Positions 6,321 to 56,263 of a stretch of 64,000 nucleotides of DNA are shown one piece after another. The position numbers were made by a program, and so were the translations under genes. Source of the DNA: an uncultured virus (IMG/VR IMGVR_UViG_3300031951_000032) (taxonomy: Duplodnaviria > Heunggongvirae > Uroviricota > Caudoviricetes); IMG/VR virus record IMGVR_UViG_3300031951_000032; one strand, 5' to 3'. Each line of letters opens with the position of its first letter. Positions within the stretch are counted from its first letter, which is position 1. The notes beneath the pieces were generated by a model. That model did no database searches and had not been told where the DNA came from. It saw only the letters and a program-made list of their open reading frames with translations.

Positions 6321-6488
6321 ATGGATCAGTTGGATAAAATGATTGCTTACGAAGCAGGTGAGTTGCATTTTGATGAAACAATTGAATTTTTTCAAGAGTT
6401 GATTGATTCAGGTCTGGTGTGGCATTTGCAAGGTTCGTATGGTCGTGCCGCACGTGCCTTAATTGATGAGGGTTGGTGCATACAATGA
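6321..6488 (+). CDS. small hypothetical protein (55 aa)
   Basis: GGAGG SD; MDQLDKMIAYEAGEL...LVWHLQGSYGRAA. Confidence 0.7.
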   Translation: MDQLDKMIAYEAGELHFDETIEFFQELIDSGLVWHLQGSYGRAARALIDEGWCIQ

Positions 6489-6871
6489 TGAGTGAAGCAA
6501 GAATCGTATCGAATCGTATTCGTACACCTGACGGTACGATTCTTGAATCCATGCACCGCCACGATTATGTAACTTACCTTGATGCAAATGGTAAAGAATA
6601 CATGGTTGATGGTGGATTAGATTATCTGCGCCGCAATGTACATGATGATGCACCATATGAGGAACTGTCGGTGTATGATGATGCACTACATGTGGAGATT
6701 CGTAATGTATTCAAATGGGGAACACGTGGTAAAGATGGTAAGCAACCGCTGAAATATGTGGTGCTAAAAGACTTGACAACGGAACACATTGAGGCTATAC
6801 TGGATACACAGTCACATATTAGTGACTACATCCGAAAAATATTTTTAAATGAATTAAGTATTCGGGAATAA
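6485..6871 (+). CDS. conserved phage hypothetical protein
   Basis: RIRTPDGTILES.HRHDY...VDGGLDYLRR; ATGA overlap. Confidence 0.75.
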   Translation: MMSEARIVSNRIRTPDGTILESMHRHDYVTYLDANGKEYMVDGGLDYLRRNVHDDAPYEELSVYDDALHVEIRNVFKWGTRGKDGKQPLKYVVLKDLTTEHIEAILDTQSHISDYIRKIFLNELSIRE

Positions 6872-6889
6872 AATTTTATATATAGTATT

Positions 6890-6985
6890 ATGAACAAACT
6901 AGCACACATTACGAAGGAATGCCCACAGTATCGCACATTTAGCGATAATGGTTCATGGGCGCCCGCATCGGAGGTTTGTGTATAG
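6890..6985 (+). CDS. putative attenuator leader peptide (31 aa, all 20 amino acids)
   Basis: MNKLAHITKECPQYRTFSDNGSWAPASEVCV*; 30 distinct codons of 31; 3' end overlaps antiterminator arm. Confidence 0.8.
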   Translation: MNKLAHITKECPQYRTFSDNGSWAPASEVCV

Positions 6986-7020
6986 ATTGTAGTTTAGTTC
7001 TAACTGTATACAAACCCCGA
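6968..7020 (+). promoter_or_regulatory. putative antiterminator hairpin
   Basis: TCGG-a-GGTTTGTGTATAG (6968-6985) pairs with CTGTATACAAACC-CCGA (7004-7020): 17 bp, 2 G-U pairs, one bulge. Confidence 0.75.
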
Positions 7021-7045
7021 AGTCCAAAAGATTTCGGGGTTTTTT
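7012..7045 (+). terminator. intrinsic terminator (attenuator)
   Basis: AAACCCCGAAGTC-CAAAA-GATTTCGGGGTTTTTT. Confidence 0.9.
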
Positions 7046-7053
7046 GTTTTTAT

Positions 7054-7132
7054 CTGGGTGTATTGTCAGCCTGGTCAGACGGCTCGCCTTGGAAGTGAGA
7101 GGACGCAGGTTCAAATCCTGCCACCCAGACCA
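7054..7132 (+). tRNA. tRNA-Pro(UGG)
   Basis: cloverleaf, CTCGC-CTTGGAA-GTGAG anticodon arm, encoded CCA. Confidence 0.95.
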
Positions 7133-7179
7133 AGTTGCTAAAGTAATAATGTTGTAGAAAAACAACGGCAAAAAAGTAG

Positions 7180-7208
7180 TTGACAGAGTTTCGGATTTTC
7201 ACTATAAT
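7180..7208 (+). promoter_or_regulatory. sigma70-type promoter for main tRNA array
   Basis: TTGACA-17-TATAAT; upstream imperfect palindrome TGTTGTAGAAAAACAACG (7150-7167). Confidence 0.85.
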
Positions 7209-7338
7209 AGATTCTGTTGAGTTGATTGAGAAAAAAAACAGAAGTGAGCGTTCTGTCTCTGAAAAGAGTTTAGCAAGGGTTTGATACGGTAATGCCTTCG
7301 GTATCATGTAACAGGCCTGTCCTTGTTAGTTCTTGAAT

Positions 7339-7350
7339 TGTTCTTTAAAA
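7339..7350 (+). promoter_or_regulatory. rrn-like boxA antitermination element
   Basis: TGTTCTTTAAAA versus boxA TGCTCTTTAACA; 12 nt before tRNA-Glu. Confidence 0.7.
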
Positions 7351-7362
7351 AATTTGTGAGAT

Positions 7363-7437
7363 GCACCCATCGTCTAGTGGTCAGGACATTGCCCTTTCAC
7401 GGCAGTAACACCGGTTCGAATCCGGTTGGGTGTACCA
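7363..7437 (+). tRNA. tRNA-Glu(UUC)
   Basis: cloverleaf, anticodon TTC, CCA. Confidence 0.95.
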
Positions 7438-7447
7438 GTTATATTAT

Positions 7448-7524
7448 GGGTGTGTAACTCAGTTGGCTAGAGTATCAGACTTTTAATCTGAGAGTCGTGG
7501 GTTCGAATCCCACCGCACCTACCA
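7448..7524 (+). tRNA. tRNA-Lys(UUU)
   Basis: cloverleaf, anticodon TTT, CCA. Confidence 0.95.
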
Positions 7525-7601
7525 TATTGAAGCACATTGGTTCTAAGGGTTGTTCCGAGGATAATTCAACTCCAATGGAGTCCCAGTGTGTTTCAATATG
7601 G
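7522..7601 (+). ncRNA. inter-tRNA stem-loop cassette 1 (unknown function)
   Basis: 19-bp closing stem CCATATTGAAGCACATTGG / CCAGTGTGTTTCAATATGG. Confidence 0.6.
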
Positions 7602-7677
7602 CATGTTAGCATAGTTGGCCTAATGCGCCGCCCTGTCACGGCGGAGACCACGGGTTCGAATCCCGTACATGTCGCCA
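7600..7677 (+). tRNA. tRNA-Asp(GUC)
   Basis: cloverleaf, anticodon GTC, CCA. Confidence 0.95.
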
Positions 7678-7683
7678 GAATGA

Positions 7684-7758
7684 TGCTCAGTAGATCAGCG
7701 GTAGATCAGCGGACTGTTAATCCGTGTGTCGTAGGTTCGATCCCTACCTGAGCAGCCA
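7684..7758 (+). tRNA. tRNA-Asn(GUU)
   Basis: cloverleaf, anticodon GTT, CCA. Confidence 0.95.
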
Positions 7759-7881
7759 TATTAGATTTGCAGTTTGTAAGCCATGGGCTTGATCATGCCT
7801 GAGTAACTATGTAAATAAACGGTAAAGCCGGCCGGACATTCCGTTGAGCATAGCAAATAGTGCAGACTGCAATTCTAATAT
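7758..7881 (+). ncRNA. structured inter-tRNA RNA (~124 nt, unknown function)
   Basis: 21-bp closing stem ATATTAGATTTGCAGTTTGTA / TGCAGACTGCAATTCTAATAT with inner helices. Confidence 0.55.
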
Positions 7882-7884
7882 TGT

Positions 7885-7958
7885 TGGGGATTAGTTAAAT
7901 GGTATAACCACGGATTTTGATTCCGTTGTCGTAAGTTCGATTCTTACATCCCCTGCCA
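7885..7958 (+). tRNA. tRNA-Gln(UUG)
   Basis: cloverleaf, anticodon TTG, U1-U72 mismatch, CCA. Confidence 0.93.
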
Positions 7959-7965
7959 GTAATAT

Positions 7966-8049
7966 GGGTAACGAGCAGCATTGGTGACTGCACCTGACTG
8001 TAAATCAGACGCTTCGGCATACTTGGTTCGACTCCGAGGTTACCCACCA
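7966..8049 (+). tRNA. tRNA-Tyr(GUA)
   Basis: cloverleaf with variable arm, anticodon GTA, CCA. Confidence 0.95.
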
Positions 8050-8056
8050 AGTTTTA

Positions 8057-8131
8057 CGGTCTTTAGTAAAATGGATATTACGGGTGGCTACGGACCACCA
8101 AGTGGGAGTTCGATTCTCTCAGGACCGGCCA
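8057..8131 (+). tRNA. tRNA-Arg(ACG)
   Basis: cloverleaf, anticodon ACG, CCA. Confidence 0.93.
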
Positions 8132-8223
8132 TATTGAAACATATTGCAAAGACCGCTGAGTCGTTCTGCATTGCTGGAGTCTTCTATGAAGAGGTGTCGC
8201 AAAGGCAGTATGTTTCAATATGG
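8129..8223 (+). ncRNA. inter-tRNA stem-loop cassette 2 (unknown function)
   Basis: 19-bp closing stem CCATATTGAAACATATTGC / GCAGTATGTTTCAATATGG, covarying with cassette 1. Confidence 0.6.
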
Positions 8224-8297
8224 GGGATTGGTGCTAATTGGGAACACATGTGCTTTGCAAGCATGAGTAAGCAGTTCGAATCTGCTATCCTCCACCA
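8222..8297 (+). tRNA. tRNA-Ala(UGC)
   Basis: anticodon TGC, G3-U70 identity pair, CCA. Confidence 0.95.
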
Positions 8298-8307
8298 AAG
8301 TTTTATT

Positions 8308-8382
8308 GCCGGTTTAGCTCAGTGGTAGAGCATCCGCCTTGTAAGCGGGAGGTCGTCAGTTCGAATCCGACAACCGGCACCA
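8308..8382 (+). tRNA. tRNA-Thr(UGU)
   Basis: cloverleaf, anticodon TGT, CCA. Confidence 0.95.
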
Positions 8383-8388
8383 GACTAT

Positions 8389-8464
8389 CGCAGAGTATGG
8401 AAGTGGTCATCCGCTTGGTCTCATAAGCCGAGAATCGCAGGTTCGAATCCTGCCTCTGCAACCA
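8389..8464 (+). tRNA. tRNA-fMet(CAU), initiator-like
   Basis: anticodon CAT, C1-A72 mismatch, CCA. Confidence 0.88.
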
Positions 8465-8477
8465 TTACAGGTGAAAC

Positions 8478-8945
8478 GTGAAAAAAGAAATTGATGTGAA
8501 CGAAGTGGCCGCATTTCTTGATACATGTGGTCCTGATACAAAAGTGTATGTTGGTGCCGATTCTGAACGATTTCAAATTGGTGGTGAATGGTACGCCGAT
8601 TACATTCTTGCTGTTGTTGTTCACATTGATGGTCGTCACGGTTGCAAGATATTTGGTGCTGTACAACGTGAACGTGACTTTGAACAAAAGAAAAGCCGGC
8701 CACGTTTTCGTTTGATGAATGAAGTATACAAAGTGGCCGATTTGTATTTGAAACTCTATGATGCAATACCACATGATATTCAGATTCATTTGGATATTAA
8801 CCCAAGTGAAATGCACGGTTCAAGTTGTGTGGTAAATGAAGCGATTGGTTATATACGTGGCACATGTAATGTGATACCATTGATAAAACCAAAAGCATTT
8901 GCAGCAAGTTATGCAGCAGATAGGTTTAAAAGTTTAGTAGCGTAG
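8478..8945 (+). CDS. RNase H-like YkuK (DUF458) family protein
   Basis: KVYVGADS, RLMNEV, IHLDIN, KP.AFAASYAAD motifs. Confidence 0.8.
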   Translation: MKKEIDVNEVAAFLDTCGPDTKVYVGADSERFQIGGEWYADYILAVVVHIDGRHGCKIFGAVQRERDFEQKKSRPRFRLMNEVYKVADLYLKLYDAIPHDIQIHLDINPSEMHGSSCVVNEAIGYIRGTCNVIPLIKPKAFAASYAADRFKSLVA

Positions 8946-9019
8946 CGGGTATAATTCAGTGGTAGAATGTTTCCTTGCCAAGGAAAATGTCGTCAGTTCG
9001 AGTCTGACTACCCGCTCCA
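8945..9019 (+). tRNA. tRNA-Gly(GCC)
   Basis: cloverleaf, anticodon GCC, U73, CCA. Confidence 0.95.
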
Positions 9020-9023
9020 GTAT

Positions 9024-9097
9024 TCCGGTGTAGTATAATGGCAGTGCGGCGGTCTCCAAAACCGTTAGTGGGGGTTCGATTCCCTCCACCGGAGCCA
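9024..9097 (+). tRNA. tRNA-Trp(CCA)
   Basis: cloverleaf, anticodon CCA, CCA end. Confidence 0.95.
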
Positions 9098-9109
9098 GTA
9101 TTTTTTGGC

Positions 9110-9183
9110 GTGGCCATGTTGTAATGGTAGCAACCTAGACTGTGACTCTGGTAGTTCGGGTTCGAATCCCGATGGTCACCCCA
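9110..9183 (+). tRNA. tRNA-His(GUG)
   Basis: anticodon GTG, C73; position -1 is C rather than G. Confidence 0.92.
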
Positions 9184-9192
9184 AAAAGTATT

Positions 9193-9268
9193 GGTGCTTT
9201 AGCTGATGTGGTCATAGCGGCGGTTTGAAGAGCCGTTGAAGTTGGTTCGATTCCAACAGGCACCACCA
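9193..9268 (+). tRNA. tRNA-Phe(GAA)
   Basis: cloverleaf, anticodon GAA (G37), CCA. Confidence 0.92.
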
Positions 9269-9269
9269 T

Positions 9270-9343
9270 TGTCCTGTAGTTAAATGGTATAACTGTCGAT
9301 TGATAATCGACCATTACAAGTTCAATTCTTGTCGGGACAACCA
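9270..9343 (+). tRNA. tRNA-Ile(GAU)
   Basis: cloverleaf, anticodon GAT, CCA. Confidence 0.93.
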
Positions 9344-9347
9344 GAAT

Positions 9348-9422
9348 GGTAGTGTAGCATAATGGTAGTGCGCCACCTTCATACGGTGTCAGGTGTAAGT
9401 TCGAATCTTACCACTACTACCA
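9348..9422 (+). tRNA. tRNA-CAU (elongator Met likely; Ile2 not excluded)
   Basis: anticodon CAT, G1-U72 pair, CCA. Confidence 0.85.
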
Positions 9423-9423
9423 A

Positions 9424-9499
9424 GCGCCGGTGACGGAACGGTATACGTGTTGGTCTTAGAAACCAAATTTTGAGAGTTCGAATCTCTCCTGGCGCACCA
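9424..9499 (+). tRNA. tRNA-Leu(UAG), short variable loop
   Basis: anticodon TAG, A73, no long variable arm. Confidence 0.9.
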
Positions 9500-9524
9500 A
9501 TATAAGTAGCGTGTGAGGCGATGT

Positions 9525-9599
9525 GCATCGTTAGTTCAGCGGTAGAATCCCTGCCTTACAAGCAGGTTGTCGGTGGTTCGAATCCATCACGATGCACCA
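9525..9599 (+). tRNA. tRNA-Val(UAC)
   Basis: cloverleaf, anticodon TAC, CCA. Confidence 0.95.
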
Positions 9600-9604
9600 A
9601 TAAT

Positions 9605-9682
9605 GCAACGGTGGCAGAGTGGTCCAATGCAAGGGACTGCAAATCCCTAAAGCCGTCAGTTCGAATCTGACCCGTTGCTCCA
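9605..9682 (+). tRNA. tRNA-Cys(GCA)
   Basis: anticodon GCA, U73, CCA. Confidence 0.95.
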
Positions 9683-9687
9683 GTTTA

Positions 9688-9777
<90 letters not shown>

Positions 9778-9785
9778 AGGAAAAT

Positions 9786-9947
9786 ATGGTAACATTAAAA
9801 ATTATTCTAACAATTATTTGTTACTGGGTGCTTATGGGTGTTAGTGTCGCACTCATGATGGCACTTTTTTATGGGTTGGCATTAGTTTTAGGAGAGTTGG
9901 CCGAGTGGTTAAGGCAGCGGTTTGCTAAACCGTCGTTGCGAAAGTGA
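9786..9947 (+). CDS. small membrane peptide overlapping tRNA-Ser(GCU)
   Basis: AAGGA SD, ATG 9786, about 33 hydrophobic residues then basic tail. Confidence 0.5.
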   Translation: MVTLKIILTIICYWVLMGVSVALMMALFYGLALVLGELAEWLRQRFAKPSLRK

Positions 9948-9978
9948 CGCATAGGTTCGAATCCTATACTCTCCGCCA
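9891..9978 (+). tRNA. tRNA-Ser(GCU)
   Basis: long variable arm, anticodon GCT, CCA. Confidence 0.95.
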
Positions 9979-26804: not shown

Positions 26805-27977
26805 ATGAAAAAAATAGCGATAGTTGGTAGAGGCACGGTTGGTTGCTTATCAGTAGCACATTATCTTAGATATACCAATTGGAATATAGATTGGATTTAT
26901 GATCCTCTTATTGAAACTACTCCGGTAGGAGAAGGAACGAATTTAATATTTCCGAAATCTCTCAGAGAAACGTTAGGATTTAGTAGCGTTGACATGGATA
27001 ATGTGAACTCTACTCCAAAACTGGGTATTTGGAAAAGAAACTGGGGTCAAGGCGAAGATTTTAAACACACATTTCTTGCTGGTGACCATGGACTACATTT
27101 CAATGCAGTTCAGTTACAAGATTATATCTTTGAAAAAATGAGGAATGATCCAAGAGTTAATTTGATAGAATCAAATATACCAACTCCTGATTCTGTTGAT
27201 AGTGATTATGTTATGATGTGTACTGGATCACCTAAAGATTTGATGGAAGATTATACTGTTCATGATCACATACCAGTAAATGCCGCTATGGTATTTCAGT
27301 GTCCTTGGGATATGCCGAAATTTTTTTATTCATTAACATTCGCCAAAAAATTTGGTTGGGTTTTTGGAATACCATTAAAAAATAGATGCGCCATAGGTTA
27401 TGTTTATAATGATCAATATTGTACTGAAGAGGATATCATAACGGAAGTTCAGGACATACTTGATGAATTTAATTTGGTGCCAACGGCGACTAGAAAACTA
27501 AAATTTAGAAATTATTCCAGAAAACAAAATTTTGATGTTAGAGTTTGTTACAATGGTAACGCTTCTTATTTTCTTGAACCACTTGAGGCTACATCTACGG
27601 GATTTTCAGATTATATTAATAGACTTTCTTTTGATTATTGGTATACGAAAGAATTTAATCAAAATGCAGTAAATGAATTCTATAAAAGAGAAATAACCGA
27701 AACTGAAGCAATGATATGCTTGCATTATTTTTCAGGCTCAGTATATAATAACGAGTTTTGGAAATATGCTCAAAAATTAGGTGAAAATATTATAAAAGAA
27801 AATTTTAAAAATAAAACTAAATTTTCTGAAATTATAAAAGTAGCTTTGGATGAAAAAACTTTAAAAAAACCACATACAGTTTCATTTGAAAGAAGCATAG
27901 GGTCTTGGCCAGTTCTAAGTTATGTGCAAAATATTAAAAATCTTGGAATAGAAGAACGTTTGAAAGAATTGTTGTAA
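26805..27977 (+). CDS. tryptophan-halogenase-family flavoprotein
   Basis: IVGRGTVG, VGEGT, GWVFGIPL, F.EPLEAT motifs. Confidence 0.82.
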   Translation: MKKIAIVGRGTVGCLSVAHYLRYTNWNIDWIYDPLIETTPVGEGTNLIFPKSLRETLGFSSVDMDNVNSTPKLGIWKRNWGQGEDFKHTFLAGDHGLHFNAVQLQDYIFEKMRNDPRVNLIESNIPTPDSVDSDYVMMCTGSPKDLMEDYTVHDHIPVNAAMVFQCPWDMPKFFYSLTFAKKFGWVFGIPLKNRCAIGYVYNDQYCTEEDIITEVQDILDEFNLVPTATRKLKFRNYSRKQNFDVRVCYNGNASYFLEPLEATSTGFSDYINRLSFDYWYTKEFNQNAVNEFYKREITETEAMICLHYFSGSVYNNEFWKYAQKLGENIIKENFKNKTKFSEIIKVALDEKTLKKPHTVSFERSIGSWPVLSYVQNIKNLGIEERLKELL

Positions 27978-28293
27978 TCCCTTCAAAGTGAAGGCATTCT
28001 GGACGTGGGTTCGACTCCCACCTAGTCCACCAGAAGTGTTGTTTAGGGTGATATGTAAGAGTTTAACAAGACTCTGAGGATTGGAATTCCCGACCTGTGA
28101 ACAGCAGGACACTTCTGATGGGCTAGACATGGTTTCGACAGGGTGAGATAGTGGAGAAGGCAACACGATAGGCGATGATCGTTAATCAAGCAAATCTATA
28201 AATGCAAATGACGCATTTTACGGAGAAGAACGCCTAGCGGCTTAACTCTCATGGGGTTTTAGTGGAGTGTACCTTATTACCAAAACACTCTAC
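27969..28293 (+). ncRNA. ssrA: circularly permuted (two-piece) tmRNA; tag ANDAFYGEERLAA
   Basis: T-arm plus CTAGTCCACCA (ends 28032) precedes GGGCTAGACATGGTTTCGAC (28120); G3-U70; tag ORF 28204-28245; outer ends approximate. Confidence 0.92.
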
Positions 28294-28310
28294 ACCAAAT
28301 TCAATACATT

Positions 28311-28994
28311 ATGAAAATCTACAAATCAAATTATCGTAATCATTGGCTTTCTCCTTATGTTATACTGGAGAAGATTTTCTTTTGGCGTGAGATTGAATAT
28401 GATGAACCAATCATCAAAAAACTTTCCGACTTTCTGACCCCATTTAGCGTATCATGGCAAAAGTTTCTTGACTTTGTACATCCAAAAATAAACTATGTGA
28501 AGATTGACCGTTATGATACATGGTCAATGGATCATACATTGGCAGATATCATTCTACCGATGTTGAAACAACTGCGTGATACCAAACACGGTTCACCAAT
28601 GGTTGATGTTGAAGATGTGCCAGAAGAACTGCGTATTGTTGGACATCAAGATGCTTCACCACAACTTGAATTGGTGTTTGATGATCAAGGACAATACGAA
28701 AAAGATTCGTGGGAAATTACCCATCGTCGTTGGGAATGGGTATTGAATGAAATGATTTTTGCCTTTGAACATTTCGTTGATGATTCATGGGAAGAAGCAT
28801 ATCGTTCTGGTGAGATTGATACACATTCTGTTCCATGCGAATGGGATGAAAATGGTAAGCCAACACTCTACACATTTGAAGATGGTCCCAATCACACATA
28901 TGAATGTGACTACGATGGCATGAGAAAAGTTTACGACCGTATGGACAATGGTTTTCGTTTGTTTGGTAAATACTACCGTGGTCTCTGGGATTAA
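28311..28994 (+). CDS. conserved T4-like hypothetical protein
   Basis: ID.YDTWSMDHTLA.IILPMLKQL...LFGKYY.GLWD. Confidence 0.8.
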   Translation: MKIYKSNYRNHWLSPYVILEKIFFWREIEYDEPIIKKLSDFLTPFSVSWQKFLDFVHPKINYVKIDRYDTWSMDHTLADIILPMLKQLRDTKHGSPMVDVEDVPEELRIVGHQDASPQLELVFDDQGQYEKDSWEITHRRWEWVLNEMIFAFEHFVDDSWEEAYRSGEIDTHSVPCEWDENGKPTLYTFEDGPNHTYECDYDGMRKVYDRMDNGFRLFGKYYRGLWD

Positions 28995-46385: not shown

Positions 46386-46396
46386 ATAAATAAAAG

Positions 46397-46819
46397 ATGT
46401 CAACCACAATCACATCCAACGAACCAAGAATTCAAGTTGAAAGGTCTTATAAAGACTTGGATTTAAACTTTACAGTACATCCTGTCAAGAAGGATATAAG
46501 TCGCCATCTAAACGAAAAGGCGATTATTAACTCTGTAAAAAACTTAGTTTCAACCAATTTTTATGAAAGACCTTTTCAACCAGAGTTAGGTTCAGCAATT
46601 CGTGCTTTATTGTTTGAGCCAGTTGATTCTGTTTTTGGTGCTTCAATAGAAAGACGTTTATTTGATGTTATTAATAACTATGAACCTAGAGTTTCAGTTG
46701 AATCTATTGTCGCTGTACCTGCACCGGATGAAAATGGTTATAGAGTTTCAATGACTTTTTTTATTGTTAATTTGCCTAACCCAATTACAATCAATTTCTT
46801 TTTAGAACGTATAAGATAA
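46397..46819 (+). CDS. gp25: baseplate wedge subunit
   Basis: YKDLDL.F..HP, ERPF.P.LG....LLFE, NYEPRV. Confidence 0.93.
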   Translation: MSTTITSNEPRIQVERSYKDLDLNFTVHPVKKDISRHLNEKAIINSVKNLVSTNFYERPFQPELGSAIRALLFEPVDSVFGASIERRLFDVINNYEPRVSVESIVAVPAPDENGYRVSMTFFIVNLPNPITINFFLERIR

Positions 46820-54676: not shown

Positions 54677-54688
54677 TAAATAAAAATT

Positions 54689-56263
54689 ATGACTACAACA
54701 GTAACATCTAAAAAACTGCCTTACATAGCGGCTGTACAATTCAAAGAATCTTTTTACGAACCTGCACCTGAAGTGGGTTATGTTTACATTGGTAGACATA
54801 CTGCCTATGCCGATGAAGACTCACCTGACAACATTGTTGATTCAGTGATTGATGAAAAATTGGCATGGGAAAATATGATTGCCGCCAAAAGAATTACAGG
54901 GAATGATGTTGAACTTGTGATACCCCTGAATAACTGGACGGCGAATACAAAATATAAACAATACGATGATGCAATTAAGTTAGATGAACTATTGACTGGT
55001 AACAATTCTCTAAACGTAAGACCGATGTATGTTTATACGTCTGAGAGAAATGTGTATAAATGTTTATCAAATAATTTTTCATCAAACTCCACCGTTGAAC
55101 CAACTGGTGATTATACTTCTTCAAATGGTAACATTACTACTGTTGATGGTTATATTTGGAAATACATGTACAATGTCAAACCGTCAAATAAATTTTTATC
55201 TGATGAATGGATACCATCACCGGCAGGCATTCAACAATTAGATTATGGTGTGAGTAGCATTAATTTAGTTGATGGTGAATTAACAACAATCGTTGTGCAA
55301 AACAGCGGTAGTGGTTATTATGAAAACAACGTTTCTGTTTTGCCTATTTTTATAACGGGTTGTACTAGATTAACACTAGCAAATACCACCAATGTTGCAG
55401 CAAACATGACTGTTTCTGGAACAGGTATAGCACCTGGCACATTTATTTCTAGTATTGATGTACCAAATAATAATATTTTCCTTTCAACTGCAACTTCTGC
55501 GTCCGGTGGAGGAAATACTACAGCCAATCAAATTTCTTTGACGACTAGAGTTTTCATTGATGGTGATGGAATAGGAGCAGTAGCGGCTCCAACAGTTAAT
55601 GCAGCAGGTTTCGTCACAAAAGTATCCGTAACAACGATTGGTACCGGCTATTCCAGAGCAAATGCTTTTGTTTTCGGGACTGGCACTGGTGCTTCTCTTC
55701 GTGTAATTCGTGATATGAAATTTGGTCACGGATACAATCCAGCAAGAGAATTGGGTGCAAACAGTGTTATGGTCGTGTCACGCATCGGTGAAATTGATTC
55801 AACTGAAAATGGTAAGATACCAGCAAATACAACTTTTAGACAATATGGTATCTTTGTAAACCCTCATAAATATGGAGAAGCAAATGTTGTTTCATCCGTT
55901 AATGCTACTCCTGTTGTTTCTCAAGCTACCGAGATTACGTTGATTACTGGTCCACTTTATTCATTAAGTGAATTTGCATATCAAGGTTTTCCAAATGACA
56001 CAACAACAGCCAATACAGTTGCTCATGGATTTGTCCTTGATCAGACGACAAATCAGGTTAGACTTACTAATGTAAGAGGTGCCTTCAGACCAGGTCTACC
56101 TTTAAGAGGAGCAAGTTCGGGTGTCAATGATCGTTTGATTGTTTCAGTAAAAAATCCAGAATTTCAACCTTTTTCGGGTGATGTTCTTTACACAGAAAAT
56201 GCTACAAAAACTACAAGAGCGGATGGTCAGGCTGAAGACATCAAACTTATTGTTAGATTTTAG
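54689..56263 (+). CDS. gp8: baseplate wedge subunit
   Basis: VYKCL.N, S..EP, DGYIWKYMY, FRQ.G...NP, Q.EDIK....F. Confidence 0.88.
   Translation: MTTTVTSKKLPYIAAVQFKESFYEPAPEVGYVYIGRHTAYADEDSPDNIVDSVIDEKLAWENMIAAKRITGNDVELVIPLNNWTANTKYKQYDDAIKLDELLTGNNSLNVRPMYVYTSERNVYKCLSNNFSSNSTVEPTGDYTSSNGNITTVDGYIWKYMYNVKPSNKFLSDEWIPSPAGIQQLDYGVSSINLVDGELTTIVVQNSGSGYYENNVSVLPIFITGCTRLTLANTTNVAANMTVSGTGIAPGTFISSIDVPNNNIFLSTATSASGGGNTTANQISLTTRVFIDGDGIGAVAAPTVNAAGFVTKVSVTTIGTGYSRANAFVFGTGTGASLRVIRDMKFGHGYNPARELGANSVMVVSRIGEIDSTENGKIPANTTFRQYGIFVNPHKYGEANVVSSVNATPVVSQATEITLITGPLYSLSEFAYQGFPNDTTTANTVAHGFVLDQTTNQVRLTNVRGAFRPGLPLRGASSGVNDRLIVSVKNPEFQPFSGDVLYTENATKTTRADGQAEDIKLIVRF

Follow-up and report, generated by a model that had tools for sequence, protein, structure and literature searches.

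A putative leader-peptide attenuator sampling nearly every amino acid at the head of phage tRNA arrays

Enterobacterial attenuators such as trpL, hisL, pheL and leuL combine a short leader ORF with RNA segments that form an anti-antiterminator, an antiterminator and an intrinsic terminator, and these classical elements gain their sensitivity from codon runs. Multivalent versions report several amino acids at once, with thrL sensing Thr and Ile and the ilv leaders sensing Leu, Val and Ile. The T-box is untranslated; it binds uncharged tRNA directly and gates transcription by the choice between terminator and antiterminator. To our knowledge, the leader-peptide attenuators described so far sense one to three amino acids and control biosynthetic or synthetase genes. 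Among titles and abstract openings in the literature, we found no account of a leader peptide, an attenuator or an all-amino-acid ORF before tRNA genes.

We describe an element of related design in DNA of an uncultured phage (IMG/VR record IMGVR_UViG_3300031951_000032; the whole stretch analysed, 64,000 nucleotides, is called the window). Like trpL, hisL, pheL and leuL, it has four RNA segments and a stop codon placed so that a finishing ribosome would mask segment 2. Unlike them, the phage leaders carry 18-20 different amino acids with no run of a single codon family, have no Shine-Dalgarno sequence in a geometry that implies a leaderless message, and would regulate tRNAs instead of biosynthetic enzymes. 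With the multivalent attenuators the element shares the principle that one leader peptide reports several amino acids, but those sense two or three through clustered codons, whereas the phage leader samples up to 19-20, mostly one to three times each. As in the T-box, tRNA status would set the choice between terminator and antiterminator, the proposed reader here being the ribosome. Leaderless polycysteine short ORFs of mycobacteria are reported to be cysteine-responsive attenuators; they too place a short ORF at a leaderless 5' end from which translation controls downstream genes, and they differ in having a Cys run and in preceding bacterial cysteine-related operons (bioRxiv 10.1101/834739).

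We propose that the phage element is probably a ribosome-mediated leader-peptide attenuator that gates the tRNA array and samples nearly every amino acid, its translation and stall response being predicted from sequence. A trp-style geometry appears to have been rebuilt as a general decoding gauge before tRNA genes. The original prediction for this DNA had read the locus as an attenuator, and our analysis supports that reading: non-conservation of the ORF, loss of the pairing in homologues and chance diversity were each tested, and none held.

The window derives from a T4-like myovirus with gp5, gp6, gp8 and T4 RNase H domains. Its nearest cultured relatives, judged by the baseplate wedge protein (~39% identity), are Pelagibacter, Methylophilales and cyanobacterial myophages, and most sequencing runs that contain the DNA carry freshwater or lake metagenome labels. 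Table 1 lists the features of the locus.

Table 1. Predicted features of the leader region and tRNA array in the window.
Feature	Position	Strand	Description
Sigma70-like promoter (TTGACA, 17 nt, TATACT)	6773..6801	+	11/12 consensus match; in the 3' end of gene 6473-6871
TATATATA motif	6877..6884	+	Ends 5 nt 5' of ATG; reads TATAAATA in clades C/D and types T2, T3
Leader ORF	6890..6985	+	31 codons, 20 amino acids, 30 distinct codons; frame open in 33/33 DNA versions
Segment 1, anti-antiterminator 5' strand	6892..6910	+	Codons 2-7; pairs with 6973-7000 in minimum-free-energy folds
Core hairpin (TATCGC / ACATTTA / GCGATA)	6929..6947	+	Codons 14-20; stem of 6 pairs, identical in 32-33 of 33 versions
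Segment 2, antiterminator 5' arm	6968..6985	+	Five final codons and stop
Segment 3, antiterminator 3' arm	7004..7020	+	7012-7020 doubles as terminator 5' arm
Intrinsic terminator including T run	7012..7052	+	Hairpin 7012-7042: 13 pairs (6 G-C), 5-nt loop
tRNA-Pro(UGG)	7054..7132	+	Starts 2 nt past the terminator T run
Second sigma70-like promoter	7180..7208	+	12/12 consensus match; for the remainder of the array
boxA-like 13-mer TGTTCTTTAAAAA	7339..7351	+	Immediately 5' of tRNA-Glu
21 tRNA genes	7363..9978	+	RNaseH-like gene 8478-8945 inside

The anti-antiterminator formed by codons 2-7, the promoter at 6773-6801, the promoter-to-ATG geometry and the boxA-like motif are parts of the locus that the original prediction did not contain.

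The product of the leader ORF is MNKLAHITKECPQYRTFSDNGSWAPASEVCV. A recount bore out the claim that it holds all 20 amino acids, 19 of them within the first 23 residues; Val is the one absent from that stretch, in keeping with an earlier caveat that Val codons lie in the antiterminator arm, and is found in or near segment 2. The chance of drawing all 20 in 31 residues from this phage's amino-acid frequencies is 1.0e-4, and none of 200,000 draws from its codon usage reached 30 distinct codons. No other ORF among the 451 of 25-45 codons in the window has all 20, and only 4 of 36,281 stop-free 31-residue windows in its six frames do. Each amino acid occurs at most three times and tandem runs are absent. 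The codon runs or clusters typical of leader-peptide attenuators are therefore missing here, and in other types the most frequent amino acid occurs 3-6 times, scattered through the ORF. A short ORF in the leader, by comparison, is found throughout, in the window, in 33 DNA versions and in 17 divergent representatives. PHROGs holds no family for the peptide.

As had been noted, no Shine-Dalgarno sequence precedes the ATG and the TATATATA motif lies 5 nt ahead of it. We regard the motif as a candidate promoter element, of the -10 or late type; the resulting message would be leaderless. It is missing from two loci (L107, L115), and in related phages the same 5-nt spacing of motif to ATG recurs ahead of many long late genes. 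In types T2 and T3 and in clades C/D of the window's own type (T1), TATAAATA ends at this distance, and a sigma70-like promoter ends 6-9 nt 5' of the ATG in 8 of 17 leader types. This geometry suggests a leaderless or near-leaderless message, which would account for the missing Shine-Dalgarno sequence. From the promoter at 6773-6801, the leader transcript likely starts near 6808; the promoter hexamers fall at synonymous sites and are kept in most relatives, with losses in three (L009, L101, L103). Downstream, there is no promoter-like site between the terminator and tRNA-Pro, so this tRNA would be reachable only by read-through. The remainder of the array could also be fed by a sigma70 promoter at 7180, as originally claimed, and the site there matches the consensus in full. 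Together, the 22 tRNAs from tRNA-Pro to 9978 cover all 20 amino acids.

Folding gave the two hairpins that had been proposed, a 17-pair duplex between 6968-6985 and 7004-7020, in which A6972 is bulged, and a terminator just before tRNA-Pro. The duplex has an energy of -25.2 kcal/mol, matched by none of 300 dinucleotide shuffles and none of 656 other 48-nt windows. When the nascent RNA is folded step by step, a long helix of codons 2-7 with the 3' end of the ORF comes first. In the transcript to 7020 the antiterminator is favoured (-38.7 vs -31.1 kcal/mol), and in the transcript to 7045 the terminator together with the anti-antiterminator is favoured (-50.5 kcal/mol). The hairpins had been called mutually exclusive, and this part of the prediction needs qualification: they do share 7012-7020, but in an equilibrium model a shortened terminator (7015-7039) is compatible with the outer half of the antiterminator. 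Exclusivity is thus partial, and pre-emption of the terminator would be kinetic, as in classical attenuators. In a model with a 30-nt ribosome footprint, the antiterminator is allowed with the A site at codons 2-24 and excluded at codons 25-32. RNA-library contigs of X19 (6967-7062) and X20 (6942-7050) bridge the terminator and then run into unlike sequence; with stretches left uncovered and DNA carry-over possible, they give a hint at most.

We envisage the switch working as follows. Transcription would begin either from the 6773-6801 promoter or from the TATATATA element adjoining the ATG. With no ribosome on the leader, codons 2-7 would pair with the 3' end of the ORF, the terminator at 7012-7042 would form and transcription would stop before tRNA-Pro. 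A ribosome that reached about codon 25 or the stop codon would mask segment 2, and the terminator would again form. A ribosome stalled within about codons 2-24, which represent 19 of the 20 amino acids, would separate segment 1 from segment 2. The freed segment 2 could then pair with the emerging 7004-7020 and pre-empt the terminator, and RNA polymerase would continue into tRNA-Pro and the array. Slow decoding of almost any codon family would in this way yield more phage tRNA, and adequate supply would yield less.

The original prediction named an ORF that is not conserved, or an antiterminator pairing lost in homologues, as evidence that would count against it. We examined the best 80 of 150 relatives of the upstream gene (DUF7695) in the viral collection. 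A tRNA array adjoins the gene in 10 of these 80 loci, and the ORF and terminator are present in all 10; the remaining 70 have other genes at that place and no such element. Three viral contigs found by a degenerate motif scan and 29 metagenome loci found by a peptide-alignment scan, which is blind to badly broken frames, were also taken into the T1 set. It comprises 33 distinct DNA versions that encode 29 different peptides, 29-31 residues long; 17 of the peptides have all 20 amino acids, seven have 19, four have 18 and one has 17, with Leu most often lost. None of the 33 versions has an internal stop, an outcome equalled by 0.7% of column permutations when relatedness is ignored. Indels within the ORF are of 3 and 6 nt, and those just 3' of it are of 1, 2 and 4 nt. 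The variable columns number 14, 16 and 20 at codon positions 1, 2 and 3, without third-position bias, and DNA identity is 79-96% in the element vs 74-82% in the neighbouring gene. The peptide stretch YRTFSDN-SWA is invariant save for two Phe substitutions (L096, L099). In three loci (L107, L115, L111) the upstream genes differ and the element is kept. Open frame, in-frame indels, even variation over codon positions and constraint at the DNA level together point to a translated leader within a constrained RNA, and not to a functional protein. The core hairpin inside the ORF is possibly a pause hairpin.

The pairing has also persisted. Folded independently, 32 of 33 T1 versions form the antiterminator, the exception (L086) keeping the anti-antiterminator state; most versions also form the anti-antiterminator, with two registers possible. 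Across the divergent types described below, the antiterminator pairing is kept in 16 of 17, built from different sequences, and full folds show an anti-antiterminator in about 9 of 17. Compensatory changes are seen at the level of single pairs: in L118 and L120, a T6981 to C change is matched by A-to-G in both segment 1 and segment 3, with wobble intermediates in other T1 clades, and the terminator stem of relatives shows G-C to C-G in four, G-C to A-U in two and A-U to G-C in four. Cognate and non-cognate T1 duplexes differ little in energy (-14.8 vs -13.2 and -20.1 vs -18.7 kcal/mol), and only clade D is clear. A count over the fixed alignment breaks outer antiterminator pairs in clade B because a bulge shifts the pairing register.

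The element extends beyond T1. In a complete 170-kb relative (G002), the DUF7695 gene lies 8 kb from a 24-tRNA array, and the array head carries TATAAATA and, after 5 nt, a 32-codon ORF that differs from the one in the window but again contains every amino acid; its end pairs with the terminator arm. We sampled array heads blind to the leader through the RNaseH-like gene inside the array, using the best 80 of its 207 relatives. All 20 amino acids occur in 22 of the 1532 distinct ATG-ORFs of 28-45 codons on both strands of those 80 loci. Nineteen of the 22 stand at an array head: they share the strand of the array, no tRNA precedes them, and the first tRNA follows after 65-255 nt. The original prediction had suggested looking before the arrays of related phages for such ORFs; at least 10 peptide clusters head the arrays sampled. 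By an automatic filter, 20 of 49 distinct regions before a first tRNA have an all-20 leader. L349 and L365 have all-20 leaders when the promoter-proximal ATG is used, and leaders with 19 (L384, L376) or 18 amino acids (L320, L368) also occur at array heads. Another 23 of the 49 regions have no such ORF, some of them being isolated tRNAs or inner sub-clusters, and in L342 and L348 an ordinary gene of ~100 codons takes the place of the leader.

We chose 17 type representatives, with L300 and L382 added. Their ORFs span 31-43 codons; 12 have all 20 amino acids, four have 19 and one has 18, and four of these five incomplete leaders lack Cys. They form 10 clusters at 45% identity, seven of which have an all-20 member. 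Identity between clusters is mostly 15-37%, compared with 21 +/- 5.5% for shuffled peptides. The probability of all 20 amino acids per peptide is 1e-4 to 4e-3 (0.2-6% with uniform amino-acid frequencies), codon diversity is above chance (P < 0.05) in 15 of 17 representatives, and almost every type contains Trp, His and Met, with Cys found in most. Completeness persists while peptide sequence does not, which argues for selection on the amino-acid inventory.

The predicted switch recurs in these types with its own sequences. A duplex of 9-19 pairs joins the 3' part of the ORF to the 5' arm of a terminator in all 17, all of which have terminators, and the sequences differ by type, with the arms covarying. 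Its energy is reached by at most 5 of 300 shuffles in 14 types and is unmatched by any other window of the same locus in 16; in type T4 the duplex is not significant, with 182 of 300 shuffles reaching its energy. The predicted sensing stretch holds 15-20 amino acids across types. T7 (L369, L377), T9 (L390) and L365 have no further promoter-like site from the terminator to the first tRNA, and L368 is a fifth case without one between switch and array. In T7, T9 and L365, where a sigma70-like promoter ends 6-9 nt 5' of the ATG, the putative switch is the sole visible entry to the array.

Searches outside this group returned little. The leader region is absent from the nearest record (G001, a 51-kb fragment). 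Among cultured phages, matches to the T1 region in 169 records are confined to the tRNA-Pro part, and types T2, T7 and T9 gave nothing genuine. Stenotrophomonas phage DLP_6 and Synechococcus phage BUCT-ZZ01 have the RNaseH-like array gene and no such leader in the 12.5 kb examined, the array head of the latter lying outside the locus. A search with the gene upstream in the T2 locus retrieved, besides that gene, a single weak relative, and a loose three-block DNA pattern scan gave 0 genuine cases in 80 among the matches listed. Against Rfam, only tRNAs pass thresholds in 6400-7500 and no leader family does; subthreshold scores went to the trpB motif (24.9, threshold 59), STnc180 (23.5, threshold 50) and L10_leader (15.3, threshold 44), and T-box models gave no match at E <= 10. 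A T-box-like core had also been considered and was rejected, with no Rfam match and with the N of its UGGN tetramers varying by synonymous change.

The same ribosome-read switch could report overall translation capacity, that is, ribosome availability, elongation speed or polymerase-ribosome coupling, with the varied codons serving as a sample of average speed. Such a gauge would accommodate the absence of codon runs, the relaxed completeness of many members and the elevated codon diversity itself, and it agrees with the prediction of one outcome for any stall in codons 2-24. An average sample needs no rare residues, however, yet Trp, His and Met are near-universal and Cys is found in most leaders, at a low chance of completeness; moreover, ORFs with all 20 are array leaders in all but three of 22 cases. 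We consider this alternative unlikely. The amino-acid inventory also bears on a non-translated RNA switch or small RNA, in which a protein or RNA would bind the core hairpin at 6929-6947 and select terminator or antiterminator, the frame being incidental: it offers no reason for keeping 20 amino acids. The core, including its loop, is invariant in nucleotides, and the absence of a Shine-Dalgarno sequence and of third-position bias would follow naturally if the RNA alone mattered. But the core hairpin is confined to T1 and L376 and is missing from other types, while the frame, the length of 31-43 codons and the completeness persist, with in-frame indels and no stops. We judge an RNA-only switch to be improbable.

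That the ORF is simply a small protein gene closing the upstream early operon, with the operon's usual terminator behind it, is very improbable. Such a gene would explain a conserved open frame followed by a terminator, and the near-invariant YRTFSDN-SWA stretch of T1 is what a protein under constraint might show. Between types, peptide identity is at the shuffled level, and we rejected a functional small protein on the even variation over codon positions and the negative PHROGs search. Two further observations set the element apart from such a gene: the end of the ORF pairs with the terminator arm in every type, and the element travels with tRNA arrays and not with the upstream gene, as the 70 of 80 relatives without it and the rearranged loci L107, L115 and L111 indicate.

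Our preferred reading, a ribosome-mediated attenuator, faces objections of its own. The ORF has no Shine-Dalgarno sequence, and we infer its translation. Among the T1 peptides, 12 of 29 are short of one to three amino acids; among the representatives, 5 of 17 are short of one or two. Amino acids are mostly used one to three times each, without runs, and Val, often with Gly or Cys, falls in or close to segment 2, a region in which a halted ribosome should promote termination. The shortened terminator and part of the antiterminator coexist at equilibrium, and the T4 duplex is not significant. In 6 of 17 types the array is also supplied by a second, strong promoter; the window has such a promoter past tRNA-Pro. 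The 23 of 49 first-tRNA regions without such an ORF also count against it, some not being true array heads. The leader codons match the phage's own tRNAs weakly, in a way that is suggestive only: in the window, 28 of 30 are readable by its own tRNAs vs 23.6 expected (P = 0.012 with strict wobble, 0.30 with loose), and over 15 loci (16 representatives) 443 of 537 are readable vs 419 expected, under strict wobble and with the window's codon usage as a proxy. Finally, more tRNA is no remedy for amino-acid starvation.

A bolder version of the attenuator would make it a universal sensor of tRNA supply. The leader would be a leaderless mini-gene selected for all 20 amino acids, opening the phage's full tRNA set on demand, for example when host tRNAs are depleted or cut by anticodon-nuclease defences, and closing once decoding is restored. 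We offer this tentatively and give it less than even weight. If correct, it would be a self-regulating counter-defence circuit and the first known attenuator over tRNA genes. The element occurs in many related phages, a large family of lake viruses known from uncultured material. If the attenuator itself works as proposed, it would explain how phages that carry complete tRNA sets control them, and would connect their tRNA arrays with anticodon-nuclease defences and the depletion of host tRNAs. It would also show that the set of amino acids in a peptide, and not its sequence, can be what selection acts on, and the element would be a natural translation-stress sensor that can be tested and reused. 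The promoters and terminator resemble standard sigma70 and intrinsic signals, which makes the hypothesis directly testable.

The boxA-like 13-mer TGTTCTTTAAAAA, which may resemble the boxA of bacterial rrn operons, recurs with at most two mismatches in 11 of 17 leader types, between the promoter or terminator and the first tRNA. In position it would correspond to the boxA of rrn antitermination leaders, which stands before RNA genes, and it forms a separate downstream module that is not part of the switch.

The leader element moves with the tRNA array and not with its left-hand neighbour gene, because other genes sit upstream of the leader in three related loci (L107, L115, and L111) than in the window. 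Homologues of the window genes at 6321-6488 and 6473-6871 are absent from both L107 and L115, which are also without the TATATATA motif. The sigma70-like promoter preceding the window's leader lies within coding sequence (see table), and its hexamers are retained at synonymous sites in most relatives and gone in L009, L101, and L103. A T1-like leader (the window's own type) in the related locus L376 contains 19 amino acids, with Ala missing; its core hairpin is retained, although the loop is larger. It opens with TTG; our leader-ORF screens took ATG starts only and would miss non-ATG ones.

Features identified in the window and in locus L376
Feature	Position	Context
ATAAATA/TATAAATA sites	46387-46399; 54677-54691; 40655-40643 (-)	ahead of structural-gene ATGs
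boxA-like 13-mer	7339-7351	131 nt downstream of perfect promoter 7180-7208, directly 5' of tRNA-Glu
hairpin	about 7283-7306	same region as boxA-like 13-mer
sigma70-like promoter	6773-6801	within coding sequence of gene 6473-6871
RNaseH-like gene (PF04308)	8478-8945	inside tRNA array
T1-like leader	L376:2152-2256	TTG start
phage-encoded tmRNA	27940-28336	tag peptide ANDAFYGEERLAA

Further into the array lies a 13-mer that we take to resemble the bacterial boxA consensus. With up to two mismatches allowed, the motif precedes the first tRNA in 11 of the 17 leader types. This suggests that phage tRNA arrays have an antitermination leader of the rrn type. Contigs from two RNA libraries span the terminator, those from X19 over 6967-7062 and those from X20 over 6942-7050; they are compatible with either read-through transcripts or DNA carry-over. 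Both derive from relatives, because the sequence into which they run beyond the match is unlike the window.

Relatives of the RNaseH-like gene within the array occur in 207 stretches of viral contigs and in 76 records of cultured phages, which makes the gene a convenient marker for finding tRNA arrays. Stenotrophomonas phage vB_SmaS-DLP_6 (L397, record 102089-114544) carries a 37-tRNA region with eight annotated small CDS, each stopping 6-12 nt 5' of a tRNA gene. This interleaving of ORFs and tRNAs differs from the window's arrangement, in which the leader stands at the array head.

Several structural genes in the window, and many long late genes of related phages (loci L245-L316), have ATAAATA or TATAAATA ending 4-6 nt 5' of the ATG. 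This is a hint that late messages are leaderless in this group of phages. The window also encodes a tmRNA, and a candidate link between it and ribosome stalling on the leader ORF is conceivable. The tmRNA gene overlaps two ORFs, a Trp-halogenase-like one (26805-27977) at its 3' end and the one at 28311-28994 at its 5' end.
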